DNA of 64,000 nucleotides from Candidatus Gottesmanbacteria bacterium (GCA_043801155.1 JAZDMI010000021.1:130683-194682), one strand, 5' to 3'. Shown: positions 1,004 to 15,371, counted from the first letter of the stretch. Notes: generated by a model from the letters alone, not told the origin. A program made the numbers and translations.

Positions 1004-1954
1004 ATGGCAAAACGGATTATTAAAAACAAAAAAATTTCTATATTTACTTTGCTTCTCTTTATATTAATACTGCTAATATTTCTTTTTCTTCCTGGGCAAA
1101 ATATTTATCAACAAAGTATTAAGCAGGGAAGACCTTTGGTTGCCGGCGTTCATTTTGTAGTTCCGTCACCAGCCCCATACCCAATAAATATGACTGGTAT
1201 TTTACCTCCGGATATAACTGCTCAAGGAGTTATTATCAGTGACATTTCATCAAGAGTAATACTTTTTGAAAAAAATCCCAAAATAAAAATGGCTCCGGCC
1301 TCGACAACAAAAATAATGAGCGCCATTGTTGCCTTAGAAAAATTTAAAAAGGATGACGTATTAACAGTTAATACCGTGATTACCGAAGGTAAAAAAATGA
1401 GCTTAATTCCCGGAGAGAAATTTACTTTTGAAAATCTCCTTTACGGTATGCTGGTTGATTCGGCTAATGATGCCACCTACACTATTGCCGAAAATTACCC
1501 AGGCGGAGTTACAAATTTTGTCCAAGCAATGAATAAGAAAGCCCAGGATCTTTTTCTTCAGGATACAAACTTTACCAACCCAATTGGTTTTGAAGATAAT
1601 AATCACTATACAACTGCAGCTGATTTAGCCCGTTTATCAACATATGCGTTAAATAATTCCGATATTATTAGGATCGTAGGGATTCCGGCGATTACTATTT
1701 CTGATATTACTTTTACGCGATTTTACTCGATGGAGAATGTTAATCAATTATTGGGTAAAATCCCGGGCGTATTTGGTTTTAAGACCGGCTGGACGGAAAA
1801 TGCTGGCGAATGTTTAGTCACGACAATTGAAAGAGGAGATAAAAAAATCTTAATTATTATTTTAGGAAGTAAGGATCGGTTTGGGGAAACAAAATTATTG
1901 ATAGATTGGGTTTTTACGAATTTTTCTTGGCAGACTATTGCCCAACCCACGTAG
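1004..1954 (+). CDS. dacA: D-alanyl-D-alanine carboxypeptidase (PBP5/6-like, peptidase S11), membrane-anchored
   Basis: N-terminal TM segment; SxxK (ASTTK), SxN (SAN) and KTG (KTGWT) motifs. Confidence 0.75.
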   Translation: MAKRIIKNKKISIFTLLLFILILLIFLFLPGQNIYQQSIKQGRPLVAGVHFVVPSPAPYPINMTGILPPDITAQGVIISDISSRVILFEKNPKIKMAPASTTKIMSAIVALEKFKKDDVLTVNTVITEGKKMSLIPGEKFTFENLLYGMLVDSANDATYTIAENYPGGVTNFVQAMNKKAQDLFLQDTNFTNPIGFEDNNHYTTAADLARLSTYALNNSDIIRIVGIPAITISDITFTRFYSMENVNQLLGKIPGVFGFKTGWTENAGECLVTTIERGDKKILIIILGSKDRFGETKLLIDWVFTNFSWQTIAQPT

Positions 1955-2990
1955 GATTGACAGCTGATATATAAGCTAAAAAGTTAGGATCTCCCTCAAA
2001 AACATAAATTGGCTGTAAAAATTCTTGATAATCTGCTGGATAATAATAAGCCAAATAGATTTTTCTAATTGTAATAGAGGTAGCATTCTGGCCAATATTA
2101 ATAATAAAACTTTTGCCGCTTCTTAACTCATCCCAGGCATTAGCCGCACTTTTTAACGGATAGGTAGCTTGTTGATAATTATCAATTTGCCAGAAGTAAT
2201 ATGATAATTCAAGAATACGCTTAGATGCATCAGTGTTTCCGGAAAATAGAAAATATATAGGCTCATATGGGTGGTTAGCCGAAAATAACGGCAGGTTGAG
2301 TATATTTTCTCGGGAAAAATCTACCCTGACGGCATCGGCATTTGACATACTCGTTGTTAATATTAGATTATTACCAGAAAGTTGCCAATAACTAACTGCT
2401 GTTTTGCCATTATTTAAAGTAGTAGGAAAAAGAGATAATTCTTTTAGATATTCGCTGGCTTCAGTAATCGCTTTATCTTTAGTGGGTAAATTCTTTTCTG
2501 TAAATAGGGAGATATCGAGTGAATAATCATATGTCATTTTAAAATTTCCGTTTACAATATTCATTTTTAAAACCCGTAATGGATTTAAATTATCTTGCCA
2601 TCGATACGTGGTTGCATTTTCGGATTCGGGTTCAGAATAAAAACCTAATTTGCTAGCAAATTGTTTAGCCCGACTAAAAGATAACAAATTAGCGCTTGGT
2701 TTAGAGATAAAAAAAACATTAGCAGTTGATGAGGCGACGCTTGGAGCTCCTTCAATAGTCTCTAGCTTATAAGTCAGATTGGCTGACGGTGATGCACCGG
2801 AGGGAAATTTTAAAGCGGGTAACTTACCAAAGGCAACAGTTGGCGGAGGCGGGGCTGGGGGAAAAGTCTTGCGCCAAACATCAATCGCCATCCCAAATAA
2901 AAATTTTAGAATAAAAAAGATTATCAGACCAATAATTCCCCATTGAATACTTTTCCTAGAATAATAAGCAGTTTCAGTTAAAGTTGCCAT
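1935..2990 (-). CDS. Hypothetical membrane-anchored extracytoplasmic protein (N-terminal TM, Pro-rich linker)
   Basis: 351-aa ORF with an N-terminal hydrophobic helix followed by PPAPPPP. No recognisable catalytic motif. Confidence 0.45.
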   Translation of the reverse strand: MATLTETAYYSRKSIQWGIIGLIIFFILKFLFGMAIDVWRKTFPPAPPPPTVAFGKLPALKFPSGASPSANLTYKLETIEGAPSVASSTANVFFISKPSANLLSFSRAKQFASKLGFYSEPESENATTYRWQDNLNPLRVLKMNIVNGNFKMTYDYSLDISLFTEKNLPTKDKAITEASEYLKELSLFPTTLNNGKTAVSYWQLSGNNLILTTSMSNADAVRVDFSRENILNLPLFSANHPYEPIYFLFSGNTDASKRILELSYYFWQIDNYQQATYPLKSAANAWDELRSGKSFIINIGQNATSITIRKIYLAYYYPADYQEFLQPIYVFEGDPNFLAYISAVNPTWVGQ

Positions 2991-3066
2991 CCTTCGACAA
3001 GCTCAGGATGAATAGATCCTGGGCAGATAGATTGAGTATAGCATTAGCCTGTGTTAGAATTCAATC

Positions 3067-4509
3067 ATGACTGTTCGAACCCGCATTGCTCCATCGCCGA
3101 CAGGCGAAGATTTACACATTGGGAATGTCTATACTGCCCTGATTAATTTTATCTTTGCTAAACAAAATCAAGGAAAGTTCATCATTAGGATTGAAGATAC
3201 CGATCAGACCCGGTTAGTATCCGGTTCAGAAAATAAGATATTAGACTCTCTTTGTTGGTTGGGATTAGCTTATGATGAAGGACCGGATATCGGAGGCCCC
3301 TATGCTCCTTATCGTCAATCAGACAGGTTAAAATTATATAAACAATATGCTCAAGAACTGGTTAAAGTTGGCGCAGCTTATCATTGTTTTTGTACGCCGC
3401 AAATTTTAGAAAAGATGCACCAGGATCAGTTTAGCAAAAATCTTCCTCCTCGATATGATCAGCGTTGTCGACATCTAAATAACGAAGAGATACAAAAAAG
3501 ACTCAAAAACGGCGACCCCCATGTTATTCGGCTTAAGGTTCCGCAAGCCGGCCAAACAAGATTTACTGATTTAATCAGAGGGGAGATTGTTTTCGAAAAT
3601 GGTTTAATTGATGATCAAGTGCTTCTGAAATCAGATGGTTTTCCAACTTATCACTTAGGAGTAGTAGTCGATGACCACCTAATGGAAATCAGTCACGTAA
3701 TCAGAGCTGAAGAATGGATTTCGTCAACCCCCAAACATATTCTTATTTATAAAGCCTTTGGTTGGGATATACCTTTTTTTGCTCATACTCCATTGCTTCG
3801 TAACCCGGACCACGCAAAGCTTTCAAAGCGCAAAAATCCAGTTTGGCTTTCTTGGTATAAAGAACAGGGATATTTACCAGAGGCGATTTTAAACTATTTA
3901 GCCTTAATGGGTTGGGCGTATCCTAAGGGCAAAGAAATATTTTCCTTAGATGAGCTGACAAAAGCATTCAAACTTGAAAAGATTCAGACAACCGGACCGG
4001 TTTTTGATTTAACAAAACTAGAATGGCTCAACGGATCATATATAAGACAAAAAACACCTAACGAATTAATGGATTTATTATTGTCCTATTCTACCGCTAT
4101 GGTCATACAAAAAACGCCACCGGAAAAGCTTAAACAAATTATAACTCTTATTCAGGACAGAATGAGGAAACTGGCAGACTTTAAAGAGCTAACTGATTTT
4201 TTCTTTAATAAGCCAACCGTTGACTTAGAATTGCTATTGGCTGGGAAATCAAAAGAAGATATAGAAAAAGTTTTAGGGATGACCATATTCCGGTTTGAAA
4301 AAATAAATGAATGGACCGTTAAAAAAATTGAACAGGAAACATTGGGGGCAGTATCAGAAACCGGATTTAAAACTGGTGATTACTTTATGATTATAAGAGT
4401 AGCCATAACAGGTTTGTCTGCCACTCCACCAATTAATGAAACGATGGAAATTTTAGGCAAAGATGAAACAATAGATCGTCTGAAAACAGCACTTGGGAAA
4501 ATAAAGTAA
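3067..4509 (+). CDS. gltX: Glutamyl-tRNA synthetase
   Basis: HIGH motif (PSPTGEDLHIGN) and KMSKS-type motif (KLSKRK). Confidence 0.9.
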   Translation: MTVRTRIAPSPTGEDLHIGNVYTALINFIFAKQNQGKFIIRIEDTDQTRLVSGSENKILDSLCWLGLAYDEGPDIGGPYAPYRQSDRLKLYKQYAQELVKVGAAYHCFCTPQILEKMHQDQFSKNLPPRYDQRCRHLNNEEIQKRLKNGDPHVIRLKVPQAGQTRFTDLIRGEIVFENGLIDDQVLLKSDGFPTYHLGVVVDDHLMEISHVIRAEEWISSTPKHILIYKAFGWDIPFFAHTPLLRNPDHAKLSKRKNPVWLSWYKEQGYLPEAILNYLALMGWAYPKGKEIFSLDELTKAFKLEKIQTTGPVFDLTKLEWLNGSYIRQKTPNELMDLLLSYSTAMVIQKTPPEKLKQIITLIQDRMRKLADFKELTDFFFNKPTVDLELLLAGKSKEDIEKVLGMTIFRFEKINEWTVKKIEQETLGAVSETGFKTGDYFMIIRVAITGLSATPPINETMEILGKDETIDRLKTALGKIK

Positions 4510-4518
4510 AGATAATTT

Positions 4519-4547
4519 CCGTCATTGCGAGCGAAGCGAAGCAATCT
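4519..4547 (+). repeat. Family-1 repeat, short form, immediately upstream of the GIY-YIG gene
   Basis: CCGTCATTGCGAGCGAAGCGAAGCAATCT; essentially identical to 458-485. Confidence 0.85.
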
Positions 4548-4561
4548 CGTCAAATAGTCTA

Positions 4562-4858
4562 ATGAGAAATAGGCAATCGTTTGTTTATATAGCAACAAAC
4601 AAGTTTAATTCTGTCTTGTATACAGGTGTAACCGGTGATTTAATAAAGCGTGGCTACGAACATAAAATAGGAGTAGTTTCTGGATTTACATCAAAATACA
4701 AAATTCACAAACTGGTATATTACGAAATATTTGACGATATAAGCGAAGCGATAAAAAGAGAGAAACAAATTAAGGATGGGTCTAGAAAGAAGAAAATAGA
4801 ACTGGTTATGAAAATGAATCCGGAGTTTAGAGATTTATATGAGGATATTGTTAAATAA
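4562..4858 (+). CDS. GIY-YIG nuclease family protein (small, stand-alone)
   Basis: FVYIATNKFNSVLYTGVTGDLIKRGYEH...YYE...EAIKREKQIK; typical ~95-aa GIY-YIG/UPF0213 architecture. Confidence 0.85.
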   Translation: MRNRQSFVYIATNKFNSVLYTGVTGDLIKRGYEHKIGVVSGFTSKYKIHKLVYYEIFDDISEAIKREKQIKDGSRKKKIELVMKMNPEFRDLYEDIVK

Positions 4859-4892
4859 GATTGCTTCGTCATTTTCGTTCCTCGCAATGACG
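4858..4892 (-). repeat. Family-1 repeat, long form inverted, overlapping the GIY-YIG stop codon
   Basis: Reverse complement CGTCATTGCGAGGAACGAAAATGACGAAGCAATCT; partner of 4519-4547. Confidence 0.8.
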
Positions 4893-4902
4893 ATGAGAGA
4901 AA

Positions 4903-5262
4903 ATGAAAAGACAATATAAATACAAAAATTTTCAGCATCATAATTTAGCTTCCGGCCACTGGAGAGATTTCAGCCTAATTGAACAATTAGCTAATATAGG
5001 CAGTGAAGTGGAACGATCAATTAAATGGCGATCTAAAGGGGACAATGAAACGAGCAAAAATGCTTTTATAAGAGCCTTAGAACTTTTCGATTTGACGATA
5101 GGTGATCCTAAAAATAAAAATAGACTAAAGGAAGTTTGTCGAGCCAGAGAATTATTCTGTGATTTTTTTATCGGAACAAATCAATATCATCAAATCGCTA
5201 AACAATGGTGTGACTATTTTTATCAATTTGCTTATCTTGCCCAAAATAGGAAAAATTTGTAA
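4903..5262 (+). CDS. Hypothetical protein (119 aa)
   Basis: Intact ORF directly after the right-hand repeat. No recognisable motif. Confidence 0.35.
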   Translation: MKRQYKYKNFQHHNLASGHWRDFSLIEQLANIGSEVERSIKWRSKGDNETSKNAFIRALELFDLTIGDPKNKNRLKEVCRARELFCDFFIGTNQYHQIAKQWCDYFYQFAYLAQNRKNL

Positions 5263-5344
5263 TTAACTTTATTACTTCAAAGCAATATAGTAGCTTCATA
5301 TGAAATTGTTTTATCTTTTATTTCTATGTTAAAATACTTCTAAT

Positions 5345-5416
5345 TGCCGAGTGGTGTAGTGGTAACACGTCTGCCTCTGGAGCAGAAGACCCTAGGTCCG
5401 AATCCTAGCTCGGCAG
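5345..5416 (+). tRNA. tRNA-Gln (anticodon CUG); CCA not encoded
   Basis: Cloverleaf read by hand. Acceptor TGCCGAG/CTCGGCA with U1-A72 and discriminator G73 (Gln identity elements). Anticodon stem TCTGC/GCAGA, loop CTCTGGA, T-arm CTAGG-TCCGAAT-CCTAG. Confidence 0.75.
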
Positions 5417-5464
5417 CCGAACAAGTCGGAGTAATCGGCTTAAGTTAAATGACAAACGCTACAT

Positions 5465-6253
5465 ATGGTCGGTGAAAACTCAGTGTCTCGTCAACAAAAC
5501 ATACATGACTATGACAGTTTCGGAACCAAGATAACGGCCGAAGAGATTAAAGGATATTATAACTTGAGGTTCAAGCCCGAAGAACTGAGGCTTATCGATT
5601 CCATATCCTTGCAAATCAAAGAACTTAAAGAGGAATACCCAATATTGTCTCAAGCAGATTTAGTTATTGAAGGTGGAGTAGGATCCGAAGACGTGATGAG
5701 GGAAATAGTTAGGGTTATATATCCATACCCCAAAGCTTTGTATGCCGGTATGGATTTAAATTCAATTTGGGAAAGGATGCATGGGCCGCGATACAAGTTG
5801 ATGGTGGATGAGAACAGAGCTCAGCAATTAAGTGAGGCCAATCGAACCTCTATTCCAGCATTTAGCTACGATGAAAAAATCTGCGCTAATTGCTTTGACT
5901 ATAGTTTGGTGAAAGATTTATCGCATAAATTAGGACGCCATTTTCCTTTATTGGTTTCATTTAATGCTTTAGGTGCGCTAAGCGATCCGTACAATTGGGG
6001 TCCTGATGAAGATCGTGATGTAAAAAAACCCGAGGACAGTCATCCGCTAGAACACTGGTTTTCTAAAGATAGTCCATATATTGCCCAGATCCATTTTTCT
6101 CATGAGCCTATTAGGTTTAAGAACGTTTTTACTAACGAAATGAATTTGCGTTTTCAGTTTGAAGACTTATGCTCCTGCGCGAGGCGGTTCAATCTCCAAA
6201 TAGCAGAAGTAAAAAACGGTTTAGTAATCTTTGGTTATAATTCAGGACTATAG
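5465..6253 (+). CDS. Hypothetical protein (262 aa), visibly GC-richer than its neighbours; candidate horizontally acquired cargo next to tRNA-Gln
   Basis: Long ORF with codon usage shifted towards G/C. It is followed by a strong intrinsic terminator. No recognisable motif. Confidence 0.5.
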   Translation: MVGENSVSRQQNIHDYDSFGTKITAEEIKGYYNLRFKPEELRLIDSISLQIKELKEEYPILSQADLVIEGGVGSEDVMREIVRVIYPYPKALYAGMDLNSIWERMHGPRYKLMVDENRAQQLSEANRTSIPAFSYDEKICANCFDYSLVKDLSHKLGRHFPLLVSFNALGALSDPYNWGPDEDRDVKKPEDSHPLEHWFSKDSPYIAQIHFSHEPIRFKNVFTNEMNLRFQFEDLCSCARRFNLQIAEVKNGLVIFGYNSGL

Positions 6254-6300
6254 ATGTATGTAAGAGAGGATATATATGGGGGAAGATAAATGGTTCTAGG

Positions 6301-6335
6301 CCGGCCAGCTCGGCCACTTTTTTTAATTATTTTCG
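6301..6335 (+). terminator. Rho-independent terminator (GGCCG-GCCAGCT-CGGCC followed by ACTTTTTTTAATT)
   Basis: GC stem plus T-run downstream of the 5465-6253 gene. Confidence 0.6.
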
Positions 6336-6371
6336 AGTGTGATATACTCGGGCAGCCATCCTCTTTAATTT

Positions 6372-6824
6372 ATGAAAAAAGGAATTGATTATATCGGCGT
6401 TTCCGTGGGAGCCTTGATTTTTAATAAAAAGGGAGAAATTTTTTTAACTAAAAGAAGTAAAAATACCAAAAATGAGCATGGTTGTTGGGAAGCACCGGGC
6501 GGAGGAGTTGAATTTGGAGAAACCTTGCAAGATGCGATTAAAAGGGAAATCAAAGAGGAGTATGGAGTTGATATTATTCTTCTTAAACAACTACCAGCTC
6601 AAAATCACCTTCTGCCCAAAGAAAGTCAGCATTGGGTACCAACAAGTTTTATTGCCAAAATAAAAAACGGACAAACACCAAAAATTATGGAGCCGGAGAA
6701 ATGTGACAATCTTGGTTGGTTCCCGTTAAATAAACTTCCCAGACCTCTTTCGGTTATAACAAAATTAGATCTTAAAGCTCTTAAAAAAGATAAAATTAAT
6801 ATCAGCAACTATGAGAGAAAATAA
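6372..6824 (+). CDS. NUDIX hydrolase
   Basis: Nudix box [24 protein letters not shown]. Confidence 0.8.
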
Positions 6825-7197
6825 GTTAAAAATTCAAATTAATAAGCCTCTTAAGGAAGTTTTTGCTTTTCCTTTAAATCCGGCCAATACACCCAAATGG
6901 ATAAGTTCTCTTATTAAAGAAGAAACTAATGAATGGCCAGTTAAAGTGGGAACAATCTATCGGAATCAAAACAAAGAAGGTAAGTGGGTGGAATATGTGG
7001 TGACGGCTTTTAAAGAAAATGAAATGTTTGAGATGACTTCAGCCGACAGAAACTATCATGTCCGCTATAGCTTTAGACCTTTAAACAACTTTATTACTGA
7101 ACTCGAATATTTTGAATGGGTAAATAAGGGAGAACTCGAAGAACCGTTTACTCAAGAAATATTGAATAAACTGAAGACTGTATTGGAGAAGTCCTAG
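6811..7197 (+). CDS. SRPBCC (Bet v1-like / polyketide-cyclase-like) family protein, putative
   Basis: Size and the N-terminal pattern [21 protein letters not shown] resemble SRPBCC proteins. The fold is assigned by weak similarity only. Confidence 0.4.
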
Positions 7198-7542
7198 ACC
7201 GGTATGGTGGCAAGTATAGTATAATTACCGAAGAGGCGACGTTTCTTAAGTTTTAGCTACAGGGTACTTAAGTAATATGGTAGAAGATTGTGAAGTAGGA
7301 TGCTTTTTATTTCACGCTTTAGAGCGTATTGATAGCTCTTTAGCGGATTTAAATAAAGAAGCTAGAAAAGTAGCACAGGAAGGTGGGGAATTTCCTGGTT
7401 CAGCAGGATCGATGTGCGGGGCTTGTGTAACTAGGAAAAAAAATGACACCTCTCTAGAGATAAAAAAAGCGAACCTTAAGCTTTGAAACGAAAATGTAAT
7501 TTATTTGACTTGTTAATTGCAACTGATATATCATTAATTAAG

Positions 7543-8370
7543 ATGAATATTAAAAGGTTATTATTGTTAACGTTGTTTTTCTTCTCTATCAGTCTTTTTG
7601 CTCCAAAAACTTCACAAGCAGTTGATTTAAAAGAAGTGCTAACTTCAAATGATTCAATTGTAGTAAGAATACAGGAAGGGATTGAATATTTCTTTGCCTT
7701 CAAGGTTGAAAATAAGGTTAAGGTCTTGGAAAGACAAGCAGAAAAAAGATTAACTATGGCGCAGGGTTATGCTGATAAAGGAAATGATGAAAAGGTAAAT
7801 AATTTATTGCAAAACTACCTGCAAATAAAAGATAGACAGAATGATTTATTAGGGGGAATCAAGGGTGGGGAGATTTTGGGAACGGTTGAAGAAAGAACGA
7901 TCGAACAACAAAAAACAATGGAAGAGATAAAAACTAAGATTGATGAAGATGGGAAGAAAAATGTTGTTCAGGTTCAGGAGCAAGTCGTAAATCAGGTGGC
8001 AAAAAGGGTTATCGATGTAAACGGAAAGGAAGGGGCAACTGAGTTTTTAAATAATGTGGTGCATGTCTGGGCACCCGGAACAGGGCCGGGAGGAGGGGAA
8101 GCGGGAGTAGTATATGCAGGTGGTGGAAAATTAATCTTTGCACCCGGAACAGGGCCGGGAGGACAGGGTGGAGTTGTGATTGAGGGTGGAGAAATGAAGT
8201 TTGCACCAGGGACTTCCGAGGGTGGATCCGGTGGGACTGATATTAAGAATGTGGAAGTAAATACTGGGGGAGGTTCAGAGAGTGGCGGAACAACCGTAGA
8301 AGGTGGAAATCAAAATATGGCTCCGGGGACTACTTCGGGAGGGGAAGGAACAACAGTTATTAAGGAATAA
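7543..8370 (+). CDS. Secreted Gly-rich tandem-repeat protein (hypothetical)
   Basis: Signal peptide MNIKRLLLLTLFFFSISLFAPKTSQA. The C-terminal half consists of repeated APGTxxGG... units, with a ~75-bp DNA unit repeated from about 8060. Confidence 0.5.
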   Translation: MNIKRLLLLTLFFFSISLFAPKTSQAVDLKEVLTSNDSIVVRIQEGIEYFFAFKVENKVKVLERQAEKRLTMAQGYADKGNDEKVNNLLQNYLQIKDRQNDLLGGIKGGEILGTVEERTIEQQKTMEEIKTKIDEDGKKNVVQVQEQVVNQVAKRVIDVNGKEGATEFLNNVVHVWAPGTGPGGGEAGVVYAGGGKLIFAPGTGPGGQGGVVIEGGEMKFAPGTSEGGSGGTDIKNVEVNTGGGSESGGTTVEGGNQNMAPGTTSGGEGTTVIKE

Positions 8371-8595
8371 ATATTAGTATCAGAATAAGAGATGATAATA
8401 AACCAAACGGCTCCAAAAAATACCTCTATATAATTACCGATAAAAATAAGTTCGAATATTGTAGGGTATTATTAAAATTTGATAAAATTTGGATAAAGAT
8501 AAATTATAAGTGAATAACGGATTTTGTACTTATTATTATTGACTTTTAATTTTAAATAAAGTCTGATATAATGGGCAAATTGATTTGAGGAAAAA

Positions 8596-9240
8596 ATGAA
8601 ACTAAAATCATTATCGAAAAAGATTTCTGCTATTAAATTGGCGTTAAGAAAAAAATACGATAATAATCGTAAGTTGATTATTATTGGTTTAATTTTATTT
8701 CTCCTAGCGACTGGTTTATATAATTTTAAAGGATTATTTGTCGCGGCCATGGTTAATGGTCAGCCAATTTGGCGGATATCAGTAGACCAAGAATTAGAAA
8801 AACAAGCCGGGAGTAAAATCCTTGATTCTTTGATTACTAAGCAATTAGTTCTCCAAGAAGCAGGTAAGCAAAAAGCCAATATATCTGACCAAGAAATAAA
8901 TCAGGGACTTAAGGATTTAGAAGATAGTTTAACTAAGCAAGGACAAAATCTAGATGAGCTTTTAACAGCTCAAGGAATGAGCCGAAATGATATTAAGGAC
9001 CAAATTAAACTGCAAAAGCAAGTTGAAAAAATGGTGGCTAAAGATATAAAAGTTACTGATGCTGACGTTCAAAAATATTATGATGATAATCAAGAGACTT
9101 TGTATCAGGACAAAAAATTTGCAGATGTTAAAGCAGAGATTCAAAAACAATTAGAGCAAGAAAAATTAAATGAAAAAATCCAAACCTGGGTAGAAGACCT
9201 TCGTAAAAAAGCCAAAATTAATTACTTCACCCAATTCTAA
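8596..9240 (+). CDS. SurA N-terminal-domain / PrsA-like periplasmic chaperone, membrane-anchored
   Basis: N-terminal TM segment, then a coiled, Lys/Gln-rich domain resembling the SurA_N/PpiD N-domain. Confidence 0.45.
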   Translation: MKLKSLSKKISAIKLALRKKYDNNRKLIIIGLILFLLATGLYNFKGLFVAAMVNGQPIWRISVDQELEKQAGSKILDSLITKQLVLQEAGKQKANISDQEINQGLKDLEDSLTKQGQNLDELLTAQGMSRNDIKDQIKLQKQVEKMVAKDIKVTDADVQKYYDDNQETLYQDKKFADVKAEIQKQLEQEKLNEKIQTWVEDLRKKAKINYFTQF

Positions 9241-9370
9241 ACAGATAACTTCAGAGTCGCTACAATCATTACTAACACTAATGAATGTGAATTCTGTTTA
9301 ACACACATTTTCTTACTTGACAAATTCGATATTTTCATGTTAAACTCATACTAAATTAGTCATAGTTAAT

Positions 9371-9775
9371 ATGTTTACACTTTCTAGTAAATCAGATTAT
9401 GGACTACTCCTACTAACATTATTAGCCGGTAGTCATAAAAACGAGTTTATACCATTATCAGATATTGCTGTAAAATCAGGTTTGCCTAAAGCTTATATTT
9501 CAAGAATTGCATCTGAATTGGCTAATGCCGGAATAATAAAGAGTAAAGAAGGACTTAATGGAGGGTATAAATTAGCTATACCCCCAGCAAAAATTACCAT
9601 TGCCCAGGTAACACAAATTCTGGATGGTCCGTGGCAACCGACTAAGTGTACCAGTAAGCAAAAAAAATGCTCATTGGAAAAAAATTGTCCGATGGCTGAC
9701 AACTGGCAAAATAGAATTAAAGCAAAAATGTGGAAAATAATGGATAGTTATACTTTAAAAGATTTAATGAGCTAA
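9371..9775 (+). CDS. Rrf2-family transcriptional regulator (IscR-like, with a 3-Cys cluster ligand set)
   Basis: Rrf2 HTH (SDYGLLLL...SDIAVKSGLPKAYISRIASEL) and C-x5-C-x5-C (KCTSKQKKCSLEKNC). It sits directly upstream of the suf genes. Confidence 0.8.
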   Translation: MFTLSSKSDYGLLLLTLLAGSHKNEFIPLSDIAVKSGLPKAYISRIASELANAGIIKSKEGLNGGYKLAIPPAKITIAQVTQILDGPWQPTKCTSKQKKCSLEKNCPMADNWQNRIKAKMWKIMDSYTLKDLMS

Positions 9776-9790
9776 TAAGCTCTTATACCT

Positions 9791-10501
9791 ATGTTAAAAA
9801 TTACTAATCTTTCAGTTTCGGTTGGGAATAAAAAAATTATTAATAATCTCTCTTTGGAAATTAGACCGGGTGAGCTTCATGTTCTTCTTGGTCCCAATGG
9901 TGCCGGAAAGACAAGTCTGGCTATGGCTTTGATTGGACACCCAAGTTATAAAATCGAAAATCAAATCTCGAAAATCAAAATTGACGATAAAGATTTAATC
10001 CATTTAACTACTGATGAACGCGCTAGGTTAGGGTTATTTAATTCGTTTCAAAAGCCGGTGGCTATTCCCGGAGTATCAGTAAAAGACCTTTTGAAATATA
10101 TAAAGATTAATAATCTTGAAGAAAAAATATCTAAGACTGGTAATCGTTTAAAGATCAAAGACGAACTTCTAACAAGATCTCTTAACGTAGATTTTTCCGG
10201 CGGCGAATTTAAAAAAATGGAACTTTTACAGGCTATGATAATTCAGCCAAAATATGTAATTTTAGATGAAATAGATAGCGGTTTGGATATTGATAATATT
10301 CATTTATTAGCCGATTTTCTTCAACAAATGACTCTTAAAAACATCGGGATTCTTTTAATCACCCATAATTTACGGATATTAAAATTTGTTAAACCGGACT
10401 TGATACATATTTTAATCAACGGTTCAATTATTAAAAGTGGAGGAGTCCAAATTGCCAGAGAAATTGAGAAGAGAGGATTTTCATGGTTAGTAAAAAATTA
10501 A
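9791..10501 (+). CDS. sufC: Fe-S cluster assembly ATPase SufC
   Basis: Walker A GPNGAGKTS, ABC-type fold, and suf operon context. Confidence 0.9.
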   Translation: MLKITNLSVSVGNKKIINNLSLEIRPGELHVLLGPNGAGKTSLAMALIGHPSYKIENQISKIKIDDKDLIHLTTDERARLGLFNSFQKPVAIPGVSVKDLLKYIKINNLEEKISKTGNRLKIKDELLTRSLNVDFSGGEFKKMELLQAMIIQPKYVILDEIDSGLDIDNIHLLADFLQQMTLKNIGILLITHNLRILKFVKPDLIHILINGSIIKSGGVQIAREIEKRGFSWLVKN

Positions 10502-11790
10502 TAGATTATATTTCTAGTCAAAAAAGCGAACCACTGTGGATGAAAGATATTCGACTTAAGGCTTTTGCAGTTTTTCAAAAGTTACCTTTACCTCCATTTG
10601 GACCAAATTTACACAAGCTTAATTTTGACGATATTAATTATTATTTAAGACCGGATGCAGTCCATAAAAAAAATTGGCAGGACGTACCAAAAGATATTCG
10701 AAGAATTTACGATAAATTAAAAATTCCGCAAATGGAAAAACAGTATTTATCCGGCAACCTTGCCCAGCTTGAGTCAGAAGCGGTCTATGAAAAATTAAAA
10801 AAAACCTGGGAAGACAAAGGAGTAATTTTCGTGGATATGGATACGGCCGTCAAAAAATATCCAGACTTAATTAAAAAATATTTTATGAATCTGGTAAATC
10901 TGAACGAGAATAAATTTACCGCACTTCACAGCACCTTTTGGTCCGGTGGAACCTTTATTTATATACCTAAAGGAGTATGTTTGTGTTTACCATTACAATC
11001 TTATTTCAGAATTCAATCTCCTAAAATGGGCCAGTTTGAGCATACTATTATTATTGCGGATGAAGGATCGTTTGTTCATTATATTGAAGGATGCACCGCT
11101 CCTCAATACTCAAGCGTATCGCTTCATGCCGGAATAGTTGAAGTTTATATCAGCAAAAATGCTCGGGTACGATATACGACGGTGCAAAACTGGAGTAAAA
11201 ATGTTTATAATTTGGCCACCAAAAGAGCTAGGGTGGAAGAGAATGGAAGAATAGAATGGGTCAGTGGGTCGTTGGGAAGCGAGGTCACCATGTTATATCC
11301 GGCCAGTCTACTCGTAGGAAAAGGAGCAAGTAGTCAACATCTATCGATAACTTGGGCCGGCAAGGGACAAATAAAGGATACCGGAGGTAAAGCCATACAC
11401 TTGGCAGAAGATACAAGTTCTACCATCTTATCAAAAAGTATTAGCAAAGATGGAGGTCAAACAACATTTCGAGGTCTAGTAAAAGTTGCCAAAGGAGCCA
11501 GGAATTCTAAAAGTTATATGCGCTGTGATTCTTTAATATTAGACAAAGATTCACAAGCCCAAAGTTTTCCTAATTTAGATATTAAAGAACAAGACGCTTC
11601 AATCGGGCACGAGGCCACTATCGGTAAAATTTCTGAAGAACAGTTATTCTACCTTCAAAGTCGAGGGATTTCAAAAAAAGACGCGACTAATTTAATTATT
11701 AACGGATTTATCGAACCCATAGTTAGTGAAATTCCATTTGAATATGCGGTAGAATTAAATAGACTAATTGAAATGGGAATGTCAGGGTAA
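10483..11790 (+). CDS. sufB: Fe-S cluster assembly protein SufB/SufD family
   Basis: SufBD beta-helix region (GSFVHYIEGCTAP..., NWSKNVYNL...), located between sufC and sufS. Confidence 0.8.
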   Translation: MVSKKLIDYISSQKSEPLWMKDIRLKAFAVFQKLPLPPFGPNLHKLNFDDINYYLRPDAVHKKNWQDVPKDIRRIYDKLKIPQMEKQYLSGNLAQLESEAVYEKLKKTWEDKGVIFVDMDTAVKKYPDLIKKYFMNLVNLNENKFTALHSTFWSGGTFIYIPKGVCLCLPLQSYFRIQSPKMGQFEHTIIIADEGSFVHYIEGCTAPQYSSVSLHAGIVEVYISKNARVRYTTVQNWSKNVYNLATKRARVEENGRIEWVSGSLGSEVTMLYPASLLVGKGASSQHLSITWAGKGQIKDTGGKAIHLAEDTSSTILSKSISKDGGQTTFRGLVKVAKGARNSKSYMRCDSLILDKDSQAQSFPNLDIKEQDASIGHEATIGKISEEQLFYLQSRGISKKDATNLIINGFIEPIVSEIPFEYAVELNRLIEMGMSG

Positions 11791-11792
11791 AG

Positions 11793-13061
11793 TTGGCGTT
11801 GACAAATTTTATGTTAGATATACAAAAAATAAAACAGGACTTTCCTATCCTAAAAAGACAGATAAATGGAAAACAAATTGTCTATCTTGATTCCGGTGCG
11901 TCTTCCTTAAAGCCTTGTCAGGTAATTGAGGCGATGGATAAATATTATATAAATTATGGAGTGAATATCTTTCGTGGTATTTATCGACTATCGCAGGAGG
12001 CAACCGAAGAATATGAAAAGGCCCGTCAAAATGTGGCTAAATTTATTGGAGCAAAAGATCCAAGAGAAATAATTTTTGTCAGAAACGCCACTGAAGCTAT
12101 CAACTTAGTGGCTTATGCTTGGGGAAGAGCAAATATTGACGTGAGGAGTGAAATTGTTTGTACGGTTATGGAACATCATGCTAACTTGGTGACCTGGCAA
12201 CAGCTGGCACTGAAAAACAGTGCCACCATAAAATTTTTGGATATTGATGAAAATGGAAAACTAAAAATCAATCGCCATCAGGAAATAAATCTCGATAGCG
12301 TGATAACAGACAACACAAAACTATTAGCAATTACTTATGTCTCTAATGTTTTAGGAACAATAAATCCGCTTAAAGAAATTGTGAGAAAAACCAAAAAGAT
12401 TAACCCTAATTGTTTGGTTTTAGTTGATGGAGCACAAGCAATACCCCATATGAAAGTTGATGTTGAAGATTTAGGTTGCGATTTTTTTGCCTTTTCCGGA
12501 CACAAAATGCTCGGACCGATGGGAATTGGTGTTCTTTGGGGTAAATATGAATTATTAGATAAAATGCTGCCGTTCCAATTTGGGGGAGAAATGATTAGGG
12601 ATGTTTATCTGGAAAAAACGACCTTTGCTGATCCGCCACATAAATTTGAAGCGGGGACCCCCAATGTAGCTGGGGCTATCGGTTTGTCTGCTGCCATTGA
12701 TTATCTAGAGGGATTTGGTATGGAGAATATAAGACAACACGAGGTTGAAATAACAGAATACGGTTTAAATCAATTGAGCAATATAAAAGATTTGAAAATT
12801 TACGGTCCAGAAAAAGTAGAAGACCGGGGCGGAATTATTGCTTTTAATATTGATGGTATTCATGCTCATGATTTAGCCCAAATATTAGACGAGGACAATG
12901 TTTGTATCAGAAGTGGCCATCACTGTGCCATGCCATTGCATACCCGTTTGGGAATTCCCGGATCTGCCCGCGCCAGTTTTTATCTCTACAATACTAAGGA
13001 AGATATTGATAAATTAGTAGAAAGTTTAAAAAAAGCTAAAAAGATATTTAAAATATTATGA
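11793..13061 (+). CDS. sufS: Cysteine desulfurase SufS (PLP-dependent, class V aminotransferase fold)
   Basis: PLP-Lys motif SGHKMLGP and active-site Cys in RSGHHCA. Confidence 0.9.
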   Translation: MALTNFMLDIQKIKQDFPILKRQINGKQIVYLDSGASSLKPCQVIEAMDKYYINYGVNIFRGIYRLSQEATEEYEKARQNVAKFIGAKDPREIIFVRNATEAINLVAYAWGRANIDVRSEIVCTVMEHHANLVTWQQLALKNSATIKFLDIDENGKLKINRHQEINLDSVITDNTKLLAITYVSNVLGTINPLKEIVRKTKKINPNCLVLVDGAQAIPHMKVDVEDLGCDFFAFSGHKMLGPMGIGVLWGKYELLDKMLPFQFGGEMIRDVYLEKTTFADPPHKFEAGTPNVAGAIGLSAAIDYLEGFGMENIRQHEVEITEYGLNQLSNIKDLKIYGPEKVEDRGGIIAFNIDGIHAHDLAQILDEDNVCIRSGHHCAMPLHTRLGIPGSARASFYLYNTKEDIDKLVESLKKAKKIFKIL

Positions 13062-13090
13062 AATTGACTTTAAAATTAATACAATAAATC

Positions 13091-13226
13091 GGGCTGGCGG
13101 TAACGAATTTTTTCACCCCGCTTTGTCAAAGTTAAATTGTTGTTTAGTGCATTAGCACGAAGTTTTACACTTTGGAAAGACAGAATCATAAGTGCGGGGT
13201 TGTCAAAAATTGTTACGCGCCATCCC
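13091..13226 (+). repeat. Family-2 ~138-bp element with terminal inverted repeats (MITE-like), copy 1, located between sufS and sufU
   Basis: Aligns end-to-end with 21791-21928 and 26506-26643. The conserved core is GAATTTTTTCACyCC...AGTGCAyTAGCACGAAG...GyGGAGyTGTCAAAAATT...CGCGCCATCCC. Confidence 0.8.
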
Positions 13227-13244
13227 TTATTTTGCACTTTTATC

Positions 13245-13628
13245 ATGGATATTTATCGACAAAATATTTTAGATCATTATAAAAATCCGCGCAACTTTGG
13301 CCCTATGGAAAAACCTGATTCCTCACATGAGGAAGGTAATACTTTATGTGGAGATAAAATTAAAATAGAAATAAAATATAAATTAAAACCTGATAACGAA
13401 AAAACTATTGATGATATAAAATTTACCGGTGAAGGATGTGCTATTTCTTTGGCTAGTGCCTCTATGTTAACAGAGAAAGTTAAAGGAATGACTATAGAAG
13501 ATATTAAGAAATTGAGATATGATGATATTAAAGAAATGTTAGGAACGGATTTAAGTCCAGCTAGAATAAAATGTGCAACATTGGCCCTGCAAGTTTTACT
13601 TAAAACTATTGATCATTTAATATTGTGA
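13245..13628 (+). CDS. sufU: SufU/IscU-like Fe-S scaffold (the ORF-track start at 13137 is extended into the repeat; the start proposed here is at MDIYRQ)
   Basis: Three-Cys scaffold motifs (LCGD, GEGCAIS, KCATLA). The upstream 108 nt of the tracked ORF are repeat sequence. Confidence 0.75.
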   Translation: MDIYRQNILDHYKNPRNFGPMEKPDSSHEEGNTLCGDKIKIEIKYKLKPDNEKTIDDIKFTGEGCAISLASASMLTEKVKGMTIEDIKKLRYDDIKEMLGTDLSPARIKCATLALQVLLKTIDHLIL

Positions 13629-13664
13629 ATTGTTTCATTCCTTTATCTTGTATATAATTAATTT

Positions 13665-15371
13665 ATGTCAAAAAGCATGACTTGGAGAATTGGGGGAGAA
13701 GCGGGATTTGGAATTATGGCTTCCGGAGCTATTTTTGCTAAGGCTTTAACCAGAGCCGGGCTTTTTATTTCTTCAACAGTTGAATATCCTTCGCTTATCC
13801 GTGGCGGACACAATACATATATCGTTAGAGCAGGAGAAACAGAAATTTTTTCATTAGTTAAGCCAATTGATCTTTTAGTCGCCCTGAACCAAGAAACAAT
13901 TGATTTACATAAAGGTGAGTTATCCAAAGGTGCCGGTATTATTTATGATTCTCAGGACAAAACTATCATAACAGAAAATTTACCGGAAGAATGTAAATTG
14001 TTTGGTTTGCCGCTTTTAGAAATTGCTACTAAAGACGGCGGTAAAAAAATTATGATGAATAATGTGGCTTTGGGGGCAACCTGGGCTGTCGTTGATTTGC
14101 CATTTGAAATATTAAGCAGTGTCATTGCTGATAATTTTGCTAAAAAGGGAGAAGAAATTATCAAAGAAAATACCCAAGCTGCCAAGTCCGGATTTGAATA
14201 TATTAAGAATAACTATGCCAATGATTTTACTTATAAACTCGTTAGAGGAAAAGCAGCCGGAAGATTGGTATTAACTGGTAATGAAGCAATCGGACTGGCT
14301 GCTATTAAAGCAGGTTTAGGTTTTACTGCACTCTATCCGATGACACCGATTAACGGTTTGTTGCTTTACTTAGCTTCTCATCAACAAGAAGGAAATTATA
14401 TTTATTATCAACCAGAAGATGAGATAGCCGGAATTAATTCAGCGATAGGGGCATCATATTCGGGAAAACGCAGCTTAATAGCTACATCAGGTGGCGGTTT
14501 TGCTTTAATGAACGAAGGGTATGGTATGGCCGCTATGACCGAAACGCCACTCGTTGTAGTTATGGGTACAAGACCGGGTCCATCAAGCGGTTTACCAACA
14601 TGGACAGGTCAGGGAGATCTTAAGTTTCTCTTAAATGCTTCACCAGGTGATTTTATGAGGGTTATATTTGCACCTGGTGATCCAACCGAAGCTTATGAAT
14701 TAACTCAAATAGCGTTTAACCTAGCCGATAAATATCAAACACCGGTGATTCTTTTAGTTGATAAATTTTTATGTGAAAGCATCGGCACAGCGGATAAATT
14801 AAAAATTAAGAATTATGAATTAAAAATTGATCGGGGAAAAATGTGGGACAAAAAGGGAGAATACAAAAGATATGAATTAACTGATGATGGAATATCGCCG
14901 CGGGCACTCCCCGGACAATCTTACTTTATAACTAATTCTTATGAGCATGATGAATTTGGGTATTCAACTGAAGATGCAAAAACCATTCAGTCAATGGTTG
15001 ATAAACGCGGGAAAAAATATGAACTTTTAGCCAAAGAAGTCCCCGAACCACAAATTTTTGGTGATAAAGACGCTGACATTACTTTGGTTGGTTGGGGATC
15101 AACCAAGAACGCGGCGCGTGAAGTAGTAGGTAAAAAAATAAATTATTTGCACCTTAATTGGATAAATCCATTTCCGAAAGAGGTGGTGACCAGAATTTTA
15201 TCAAAAGCGAAAAAAGTTATTGATATTGAGGGAAATTCGACTGGTCAGATGGCCGCCTGGATAAGAGAACAAACCGGTATTGAAATTAAAGATAAAATAT
15301 TAAAATATGACGGCCGGCAATTTTATCCAGAGGATATTATTGAAGGAATAAAAAATTTACTTGGAAAATAA
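13665..15371 (+). CDS. korA: 2-oxoacid:ferredoxin oxidoreductase, alpha subunit (fused gamma-alpha type)
   Basis: POR/KOR alpha-subunit architecture (GNEAIGLAAIKAG..., TSGGGFALM), followed by the TPP-binding beta subunit. Confidence 0.8.
   Translation: MSKSMTWRIGGEAGFGIMASGAIFAKALTRAGLFISSTVEYPSLIRGGHNTYIVRAGETEIFSLVKPIDLLVALNQETIDLHKGELSKGAGIIYDSQDKTIITENLPEECKLFGLPLLEIATKDGGKKIMMNNVALGATWAVVDLPFEILSSVIADNFAKKGEEIIKENTQAAKSGFEYIKNNYANDFTYKLVRGKAAGRLVLTGNEAIGLAAIKAGLGFTALYPMTPINGLLLYLASHQQEGNYIYYQPEDEIAGINSAIGASYSGKRSLIATSGGGFALMNEGYGMAAMTETPLVVVMGTRPGPSSGLPTWTGQGDLKFLLNASPGDFMRVIFAPGDPTEAYELTQIAFNLADKYQTPVILLVDKFLCESIGTADKLKIKNYELKIDRGKMWDKKGEYKRYELTDDGISPRALPGQSYFITNSYEHDEFGYSTEDAKTIQSMVDKRGKKYELLAKEVPEPQIFGDKDADITLVGWGSTKNAAREVVGKKINYLHLNWINPFPKEVVTRILSKAKKVIDIEGNSTGQMAAWIREQTGIEIKDKILKYDGRQFYPEDIIEGIKNLLGK

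Follow-up and report, generated by a model that had tools for sequence, protein, structure and literature searches.

The 262-amino-acid (aa) open reading frame (ORF) that lies directly behind tRNA-Gln on a contig of Candidatus Gottesmanbacteria (Microgenomates group, CPR/Patescibacteria) is an accessory gene, situated in a variable segment of DNA that flanks the tRNA. Taking all lines of evidence together, we consider it probable that this is a genuine gene of a small family whose named members belong to the Microgenomates group of the CPR, that its product has the fold of a SAM-binding methyltransferase, and that it does not belong to any integrase-borne element that can be recognised. The window analysed here, that is, the whole stretch of DNA in which the gene was studied, comprises 64,000 nt with a mean GC content of 36.3%. 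An earlier sequence-only reading of this DNA had described the gene as a GC-richer orphan that was possibly integrated at the tRNA, and its claims are discussed below where the respective results are given.

Gene order around gltX and tRNA-Gln

The features of the locus described here all lie on the plus strand. The glutamyl-tRNA synthetase gene gltX (3067-4509) is followed by a GIY-YIG cassette (4519-4896, with an ORF at 4562-4858; Pfam GIY-YIG, E 2e-13), the edges of which carry perfect inverted repeats (4520-4531/4881-4892 and 4537-4547/4858-4868), and by a putative 119-aa ORF (4903-5262), an ORF call without match in Pfam, NCBIfam, PHROG or PADLOC. Both are located in the variable spacer between gltX and tRNA-Gln. 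A promoter-like site, TTAACT-17-TATAGT (5263-5291; consensus scan only, 9/12 matches), precedes the tRNA-Gln gene with the anticodon CTG, which was placed at 5345-5416/5418 by ARAGORN and scored 66.5 bits with the Rfam tRNA model over 5345-5416, the sole Rfam match over 4300-7300. Behind the tRNA follow the 262-aa gene (5465-6253), which the ORF call, homologs, motifs and an AF2 model mark as coding for a divergent protein of predicted class I SAM-dependent methyltransferase fold, a terminator-like hairpin (6299-6325), a NUDIX hydrolase gene (6372-6824; Pfam NUDIX, E 4e-20) and an SRPBCC (Polyketide_cyc2-like) gene (6811-7197; Pfam), the last two overlapping by 14 nt.

The ORF at 5465-6253 had been proposed from the sequence, and NCBI annotates the same frame, where its product is 100% identical to 'hypothetical protein V1858_03490'. 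The NCBI start is GTG at 5483, yielding 256 aa, versus 262 aa from ATG at 5465; the latter is matched by the N-termini of the homologs and is at least as plausible as a start. This ATG lies 46-48 nt past the end of tRNA-Gln, in good agreement with the 49 nt given earlier. A consensus scan placed a promoter-like site ahead of the tRNA (5263-5291) and no separate one in the interval between tRNA-Gln and the ORF. The ORF is therefore probably part of a transcript that includes the tRNA, or is transcribed right behind it, and the site at 5263-5291 may be the promoter of the common transcript.

Transcription would probably end at the hairpin and T-run at 6299-6325, which is plausible as an intrinsic terminator. 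The hairpin (GGCCGG-ccagc-TCGGCC, followed by ACTTTTTTT) starts 45 nt past the stop codon of the ORF and consists of a 6-bp stem with 5 GC pairs and a 5-nt loop. The first 20 kb contain 15 terminator-like matches, and an unbroken seven-T tail sets this one apart from the others. The sequence-only reading had called it a strong terminator; the hairpin and T-run are real and lie past the stop codon, but with 6 bp the stem is short, the fold energy at this place is ordinary (z=-0.55), and terminator-like sites are no more numerous in the region than expected from shuffled sequences. Likewise, neither the tRNA-ORF spacer nor the terminator region displayed an unusually stable RNA fold.

The locus was compared with those of four relatives on long contigs (L042, L044, L046 and L048), whose GluRS is 67-71% identical to that of the window. 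The upstream order AspRS, Peptidase_S11, 351-aa gene and gltX is kept in all four, in the same orientation and with 56-74% identity, and tRNA-Gln(CTG) is found on the same strand 0.7-1.5 kb past gltX in each of them. This tRNA follows gltX in nine related genomes. The interval between gltX and the tRNA is unlike in every genome compared. L042 harbors two small ORFs there and L044 a phosphoribosyltransferase together with a GIY-YIG cassette; L046 and L048 have a gene of 211/221 aa on the opposite strand. No counterpart of the 119-aa ORF was found in the four relatives; L042 has an ORF of 123 aa in its place, which was rejected as a counterpart since it shows no similarity. In the more distant CPR relatives L007 and L008, the tRNA is located about 50 nt past gltX and the GIY-YIG cassette is absent at this position. 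From this short gap it follows that the cassette and the 119-aa ORF are extra material, as the earlier description of both as accessory had supposed. Other more distant CPR genomes have the tRNA near gltX on the opposite strand.

The DNA past tRNA-Gln also differs in content in each of the four relatives, which carry a canonical methyltransferase and a histidine-kinase-like gene (L048), a PKD protein (L046), a hydrolase (L044) or a 533-aa gene (L042). The 262-aa gene was not found in the 8-kb flank of any of them, and conserved synteny of the gene is thereby lacking at this locus in all four; the NUDIX gene had no match in the four loci either. The SRPBCC gene is the sole post-tRNA gene in common with the relatives (85% identity to L048 13651-14031 and 67% to L046), and the remaining downstream genes of the relatives are absent from the entire 64 kb. 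As the first post-tRNA gene shared with relatives, the SRPBCC gene delimits the variable patch on the far side. With the DNA before and behind the tRNA differing in the four relatives, the accessory patch postulated between gltX and the NUDIX gene is supported.

Since upstream synteny is kept and the flanks are variable, the conserved unit consists of gltX and tRNA-Gln. Their linkage would be sensible if the GluRS is, as we presume, of the non-discriminating kind that charges tRNA-Gln. Both flanks of tRNA-Gln are hot spots of gene turnover, the 3' one being filled here by the 262-aa and NUDIX genes, and we posit that the 3' side has been reshuffled independently in each related genome. The lack of synteny could also reflect ordinary divergence instead of transfer, since GluRS identity to the relatives is no more than about 70%.

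The methyltransferase gene behind the tRNA of L048 (Methyltransf_11/25) resembles the window gene in its length of 262 aa, its position (34 nt past tRNA-Gln) and its superfamily. Nevertheless, there is no detectable homology between the two (BLASTP E 0.98, hhalign probability 0.45%), so they are different genes and the window gene was rejected as a diverged ortholog. The likeness in length and position is most likely a coincidence or the result of non-orthologous replacement.

Family members and predicted fold

The description of the gene as an orphan does not hold. A word-indexed search of 5.8 billion proteins retrieved four homologs besides the gene itself, with 49, 49, 39 and 34% identity, and an exhaustive HMM profile search of 1.84 billion cluster representatives yielded 64 clusters at E<=1e-3, 35 of them at <=1e-30. 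Three more members were obtained in a second word-indexed search with the family profile, and three loci in a metagenome scan with the 5-sequence alignment. The named members belong to Ca. Gottesmanbacteria and Ca. Beckwithbacteria, while the rest are located on metagenome contigs of 30-48% GC; two of the 64 clusters are named as Microgenomates. Most members have a length of about 220 aa. A branch of longer proteins (249-262 aa), which carry an additional segment at the N-terminus, comprises the window protein and the two homologs closest to it.

A conserved palindromic hairpin with a T-run, of the form CTGCC-N-GGCAG-T(n), was observed directly against the start codon in the branch of about 220 aa. 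It could represent a regulatory leader or a cassette boundary.

On its own, the window protein had no significant match in Pfam (E<=1), NCBIfam, PHROG or PADLOC, and no significant sequence match in the PDB. The absence of recognisable domains that had been stated earlier is therefore true for the single sequence, but not for the family, whose motifs and predicted structure point to a class I SAM-dependent methyltransferase. The AF2 models reached a pLDDT of 82 with 5 sequences, and a pLDDT of 90.0 and pTM of 0.88 with 50 sequences. After an N-terminal helical cap, the predicted order of elements is b1-aA-b2-aB-b3-aC-b4-aD-b5-aE-b6-b7, with strands at residues 66-70 (b1), 92-97 (b2), 138-141 (b3), 161-166 (b4), 207-211 (b5), 246-249 (b6) and 252-256 (b7), the last two forming a hairpin. 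This is the seven-stranded, Rossmann-like topology of class I methyltransferases. All 50 best matches of the better model in a Foldseek comparison with the PDB are class I SAM enzymes (top E 4e-4, probability 1.00, TM 0.3-0.5), including AzeJ, TrmR, KMT9/N6AMT1, Hen1, COMT and NNMT, and 49 of the 50 best matches of the first model are methyltransferases. Named matches in a viral structure library were mostly methyltransferases as well.

Conserved blocks in the 50-member alignment (DLVIEGGVGxG, ALYxGTDL, ANCFDxxL, PLLVSFNALxAL and PYxAQLH) fall at the SAM-binding motif positions of the class I methyltransferase strands, and the residues concerned would make the contacts with the cofactor. The motif I loop between b1 and aA, for which the superfamily pattern is (D/E)-x-G-x-G-x-G, reads E69-G70-G71-x-G73 and is at least 90% conserved, with E75 in the window protein in place of the last G of the block. 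D97 (G-M/T-D-L) ends b2, is invariant in the five closest members and is mostly D/E family-wide; C143-F-D145 (ANCFD) follows b3, with D145 at least 90% conserved, and N167 follows b4. In the superfamily, an acidic residue at the end of strand 2 binds the ribose hydroxyls and an acidic or polar one after strand 3 contacts adenine. Nearly invariant across the family are E69, G70, G71, G73, C143, D145, Y205 and H210. The family profile matched N6AMT1/HemK2 in the PDB with an E-value of 0.006 over motifs I-II only, and weak Pfam matches were found to Methyltransf_12 in 10 of the 50 members (best E 8.1e-5) and to Methyltransf_25 in 8 of them. A match of the 5-sequence profile to DNA polymerase D among PDB sequences (E 0.27) was dismissed as spurious.

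The family thus resembles known class I SAM methyltransferases (Methyltransf_12/25, N6AMT1/HemK2, COMT, TrmR) in its predicted fold and strand order, in motif I (E-x-G-x-G) and in the acidic residues after strands 2 and 3. Unlike these enzymes, the window protein stays below every Pfam gathering threshold and has a TM of at most 0.5 to any solved structure. It is further distinguished from N6AMT1/HemK by the lack of the NPPY motif, having N-A-L after strand 4 instead. C143, Y205 and H210 are conserved residues particular to the family, which has so far been found only in CPR metagenomes, as far as its members are named. According to the models and motifs, the fold is very probably that of a class I methyltransferase, and this is a new family within a well-known superfamily. 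We consider it somewhat more probable than not that the product is an active SAM-dependent methyltransferase. Fold and motifs suggest that the 262-aa protein most likely binds SAM and methylates a substrate, and it may act as a stand-alone SAM-binding enzyme. The neighboring genes provided no clue to the substrate.

The same fold might also belong to an enzyme that cleaves or cyclises SAM, or to a non-catalytic binder. AzeJ (azetidine-2-carboxylate synthase, PDB 8rye/8ryf), a SAM-cyclising enzyme solved with MTA and azetidine-2-carboxylate, shares the fold and was the top Foldseek match of both models, and the near-invariant C143, Y205 and H210 are not part of the standard methyltransferase motifs. 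However, the lead of AzeJ is trivial (E 4e-4 versus 9e-4 to 2e-3 for true methyltransferases), and with an identity of 13-16% and a TM of 0.3-0.4 the match is no better than that to ordinary methyltransferases. We regard a product of this kind as very unlikely and favor a methyltransferase.

Genomic contexts, base composition and the integration question

About ten independent homolog loci have no neighbor in common, and a search for conserved flanks that the homologs would share with the window gene was negative as well. The homolog of L002 lies between nusA and dnaJ. Those of L003-5 adjoin a WecG glycosyltransferase, with an rve_3 integrase and a serine recombinase upstream in L004, those of L050-53 are located beside a HEPN/nucleotidyltransferase pair and a transposase, and that of L055 beside a 1047-aa kinase-like gene; L058, L059 and one JGI contig show other unrelated neighbors. 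Rfam matches around the homologs were tRNAs only. In the window, L001 and L059, the family gene has tRNA genes no more than 160 nt away, with their 3' ends pointing to it, and in L004 and L050 the distance is about 1 kb or less. This arrangement fits a tendency of the family to sit in tRNA-flanking variable DNA. Half of the family loci are without a nearby tRNA. However, excluding the window as the ascertaining case, tRNA adjacency is found in 2 of 9 loci versus about 7% expected, which is not significant (binomial P of about 0.12, own estimate).

Proximity to a tRNA might indicate a functional tie, for example a tRNA-modifying methyltransferase that is co-transcribed with tRNA-Gln. The short distance to a same-strand tRNA without an intervening promoter-like site, the tRNA genes that abut the homologs of L001 and L059, and the presence of the RNA methyltransferases TrmR and Hen1 among the structural matches would be in line with such a role. 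Yet the kinds of tRNA differ between the loci (Gln in the window, His/Lys in L059, Leu/Ser in L004 and Met in L050), the tRNAs of L001 and L059 are on the strand opposite to the homolog, and the loci without any tRNA nearby, together with the non-significant enrichment, speak against it. A tie of this sort appears highly improbable to us, and we retain the view of an accessory methyltransferase-like gene.

The base composition of the gene had been described as visibly different from that of its surroundings, and a check of windowed GC and codon usage confirms this in part. The GC content of the ORF is 39.5% versus a mean of 36.35% (SD 2.8) in 789-nt windows over the 64 kb, which corresponds to the 86th percentile (z=+1.1). 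Its GC at third codon positions (GC3), where the GC excess sits, is 0.38 versus a mean of 0.29 (SD 0.047; z=+2.0). This is the highest value of the 51 ORFs with 150 aa or more, and the second highest when the limit is lowered to 120 aa (59 ORFs). Synonymous codon choice is mildly atypical (z=-1.2, rank 8/59), and the tetranucleotide signature is typical (49th percentile). The difference is weaker than described earlier; the contrast arises mainly against the very AT-rich DNA upstream at 4600-5400 (32-34% GC), and gltX as well as several other genes have a GC content as high as that of the ORF. Moreover, the family genes are 1-8 GC points above their own contigs in 7 of 9 loci. Since the members are usually GC-richer than their contigs, part of the GC signal of the ORF is a property of the family. 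The compositional deviation is marginal, and composition by itself gives no proof of a foreign origin.

A vertically inherited, lineage-specific and fast-evolving gene, with its absences due to local loss or rearrangement in streamlined CPR genomes, has to be considered in this context. Such a history would be compatible with the contig-typical tetranucleotide signature and codon usage, with a slight GC-richness that is a trait of the family and no mark of recent import, and with the limited relatedness of the genomes compared. It is at odds with the extreme sparseness of the family among the cluster representatives, with its different context everywhere, and with the nearest homolog being only 49% identical versus about 70% for the GluRS of the relatives. 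The homolog of L002 also argues against it, having a clear signature of foreign composition: it forms a sharply bounded island of 36-41% GC (38% for the single gene) in a contig of about 50% GC. The island provides good support for horizontal movement of the family in single-gene form. Purely vertical descent of the window gene is therefore rather unlikely in our opinion, and we favor its acquisition as an accessory gene.

Regarding the way of acquisition, the sequence-only reading had proposed a fragment integrated at the tRNA site, with an att-like echo of the tRNA 3' end at 6296-6320. Under this proposal, an integrative element inserted itself at the 3' end of tRNA-Gln and left the gene behind as a remnant, with 6296-6320 as a degenerate att site. 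The locus has in common with tRNA-targeting integrative elements and genomic islands that the gene adjoins the 3' end of a tRNA gene and that the DNA there varies among relatives. The closeness of other family members to tRNA 3' ends in L001 and L059, and more loosely in L004 and L050, the recombinase and integrase near the homolog of L004, and the top GC3 rank among the ORFs of at least 150 aa are features that such an origin could account for. The sole element common to the tRNA 3' end and the hairpin is the 8-mer AGCTCGGC, which occurs at these two sites and nowhere else in the 64 kb.

This repeat does not exceed chance level (P of about 0.3-0.4), and the att echo is not upheld: the best local alignment between the tRNA 3' half and the downstream DNA has a score of 8, which is equalled or exceeded by 30% of random window segments with 982-nt targets and by 44% with 1247-nt targets. 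Around the homologs in L001 and L059, no att-like repeats were found either; an 11-mer repeat in L001 (P 0.035) was discarded as an att candidate as it is inside a coding region. A Pfam scan of every ORF in 1004-15368 identified GIY-YIG, NUDIX, SRPBCC, DUF5667, a SurA-like domain, Suf proteins and PFOR; integrases, recombinases and transposases were lacking within a distance of about 8 kb. The window tRNA-Gln differs from that of the relatives over its entire length and not only in the 3' part. It is thus no chimera of a native 5' and a foreign 3' portion, because a replacement confined to the 3' part would have left the native 5' part in place. In addition, no relatives of the protein were detected in 2.9 million viral contigs, and, as outlined above, the closeness of family genes to tRNAs falls short of significance when the window is left out.

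The locus hence differs from tRNA-targeting elements in having no integrase, no att site above chance and no chimeric tRNA, and in carrying only one or two cargo genes. Given these observations and the marginal composition, the integrated-fragment mechanism is unsupported, and we assign a low probability to the gene being the remnant of an integrative element.

Implications for CPR genomes

Our preferred reading remains that of a genuine gene from a small CPR family, encoding a protein with a SAM-binding methyltransferase fold and located in accessory DNA that is not recognisably integrase-borne. We posit that the 262-aa gene probably arrived by horizontal transfer or recombination among CPR bacteria. 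A further-reaching idea would be a CPR-restricted branch of SAM enzymes with its own catalytic set of Cys143, Tyr205 and His210, which moves as an integrase-less single-gene unit into tRNA-flanking and intergenic sites; we give little credence to this scenario as a whole.

The locus reveals neither a new mobile-element mechanism nor a new biological principle. Its value lies in two other respects. The flanks of gltX/tRNA-Gln are turnover hot spots in Gottesmanbacteria-like genomes, which is useful for the annotation of accessory content. Furthermore, a large share of CPR genes is 'hypothetical', and for the 262-aa gene there is now a predicted fold along with a probable cofactor.

GIY-YIG cassettes beside tRNA-Gln

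The window contains a compact cassette with a GIY-YIG gene (cassette 4519-4896, gene 4562-4858) that is an insertion between gltX and tRNA-Gln. Both of its ends carry perfect inverted repeats, consisting of an outer pair, CGTCATTGCGAG/CTCGCAATGACG (4520-4531/4881-4892), and an inner pair, CGAAGCAATCT/AGATTGCTTCG (4537-4547/4858-4868). While the cassette occupies the gap between gltX and tRNA-Gln in the window, this gap spans only ~50 nt in distant relatives.

A GIY-YIG ORF cassette is likewise found immediately 5' of tRNA-Gln in the relative L044 (GCA_040960625.1, JBFOMW010000009.1, 10041-10430). On either side it has a direct repeat equal to the first ~26 nt of the adjoining tRNA-Gln (tttcggggtcgtctaacgg...taggaca), the upstream copy of which is split by a 45-nt GC-rich palindrome. 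The arrangement looks as if the GIY-YIG element entered the tRNA gene and the 5' half of the tRNA was regenerated.

The 27-nt motif opening the window cassette, CGTCATTGCGAGCGAAGCGAAGCAATC, has an identical second copy at 458-484 of the window, for which the chance expectation is zero. This copy lies in frame within the Asp-tRNA ligase ORF and codes for SSLRAKRSNL. According to the domain layout of the AspRS of relatives, the site seems to lie where the catalytic part joins the C-terminal tRNA_edit domain, which is present in some relatives only. We posit that the copy may be the footprint of a repeat element used as a fusion linker.

Genes downstream of tRNA-Gln

In three relatives (L044, 12067-12855; L046, 12073-12864; L048, 10281-11069), a canonical Methyltransf_11/25 gene of 262/263 aa is located downstream of tRNA-Gln, starting 34 nt past it in L048. 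A histidine-kinase-like ATPase follows it in L046 and L048. The methyltransferase gene matches the window gene (5465-6253) in length and position, but is unrelated to it in sequence.

Further downstream in the window, a DUF5667-domain ORF of 295 aa (7483-8370) has a glycine-rich, repetitive C-terminal half with APGTGPGG repeats. This half reaches 44-48% GC with a GC skew of +0.5, a compositional anomaly far stronger than that of the ORF at 5465-6253.

Homologs of the window gene elsewhere

Among the homologs of the window gene, the closest (L002, 2250-3100) forms a single-gene island of 36-41% GC in a contig of ~50% GC, and is placed between nusA and dnaJ, both on the opposite strand. This low-GC island bears a clear mark of horizontal acquisition.

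Most members of the family belong to a branch of ~220 aa. In this branch, a palindromic hairpin, (A)CTGCC-N3-7-GGCAG(T), together with a run of T6-7, is conserved 0-7 nt 5' of the start codon and is preceded by TTGACA/TATAAT-like boxes. The hairpin was found in L054 (~486-510), L056 (~998-1018) and L059 (5978-6000), and as a weaker variant in L055 (~7966-7990) and L057 (~5694-5716). Within ~0.7 Mb of loci, matches to the exact pattern were confined to these gene starts, and the window contains none. The hairpin might act as a leader or attenuator, serve as an operator, or mark a cassette boundary.

Linkage of gltX and tRNA-Gln

The linkage of gltX and tRNA-Gln(CTG) (window 3067-5418) is kept in nine CPR relatives (L006-L012, L042-L048), on the same strand in all except L006 and L010 (7/9), while everything surrounding the pair is variable. 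The tRNA is near-identical in the four relatives whose GluRS are 67-71% identical to that of the window (L042, L044, L046, L048). The window version (5345-5418) differs from theirs in the acceptor stem, D arm, anticodon stem and T stem, and its D arm is similar to that of L012, a more distant CPR genome. The persistent linkage would fit a non-discriminating GluRS being retained beside its tRNA-Gln substrate.
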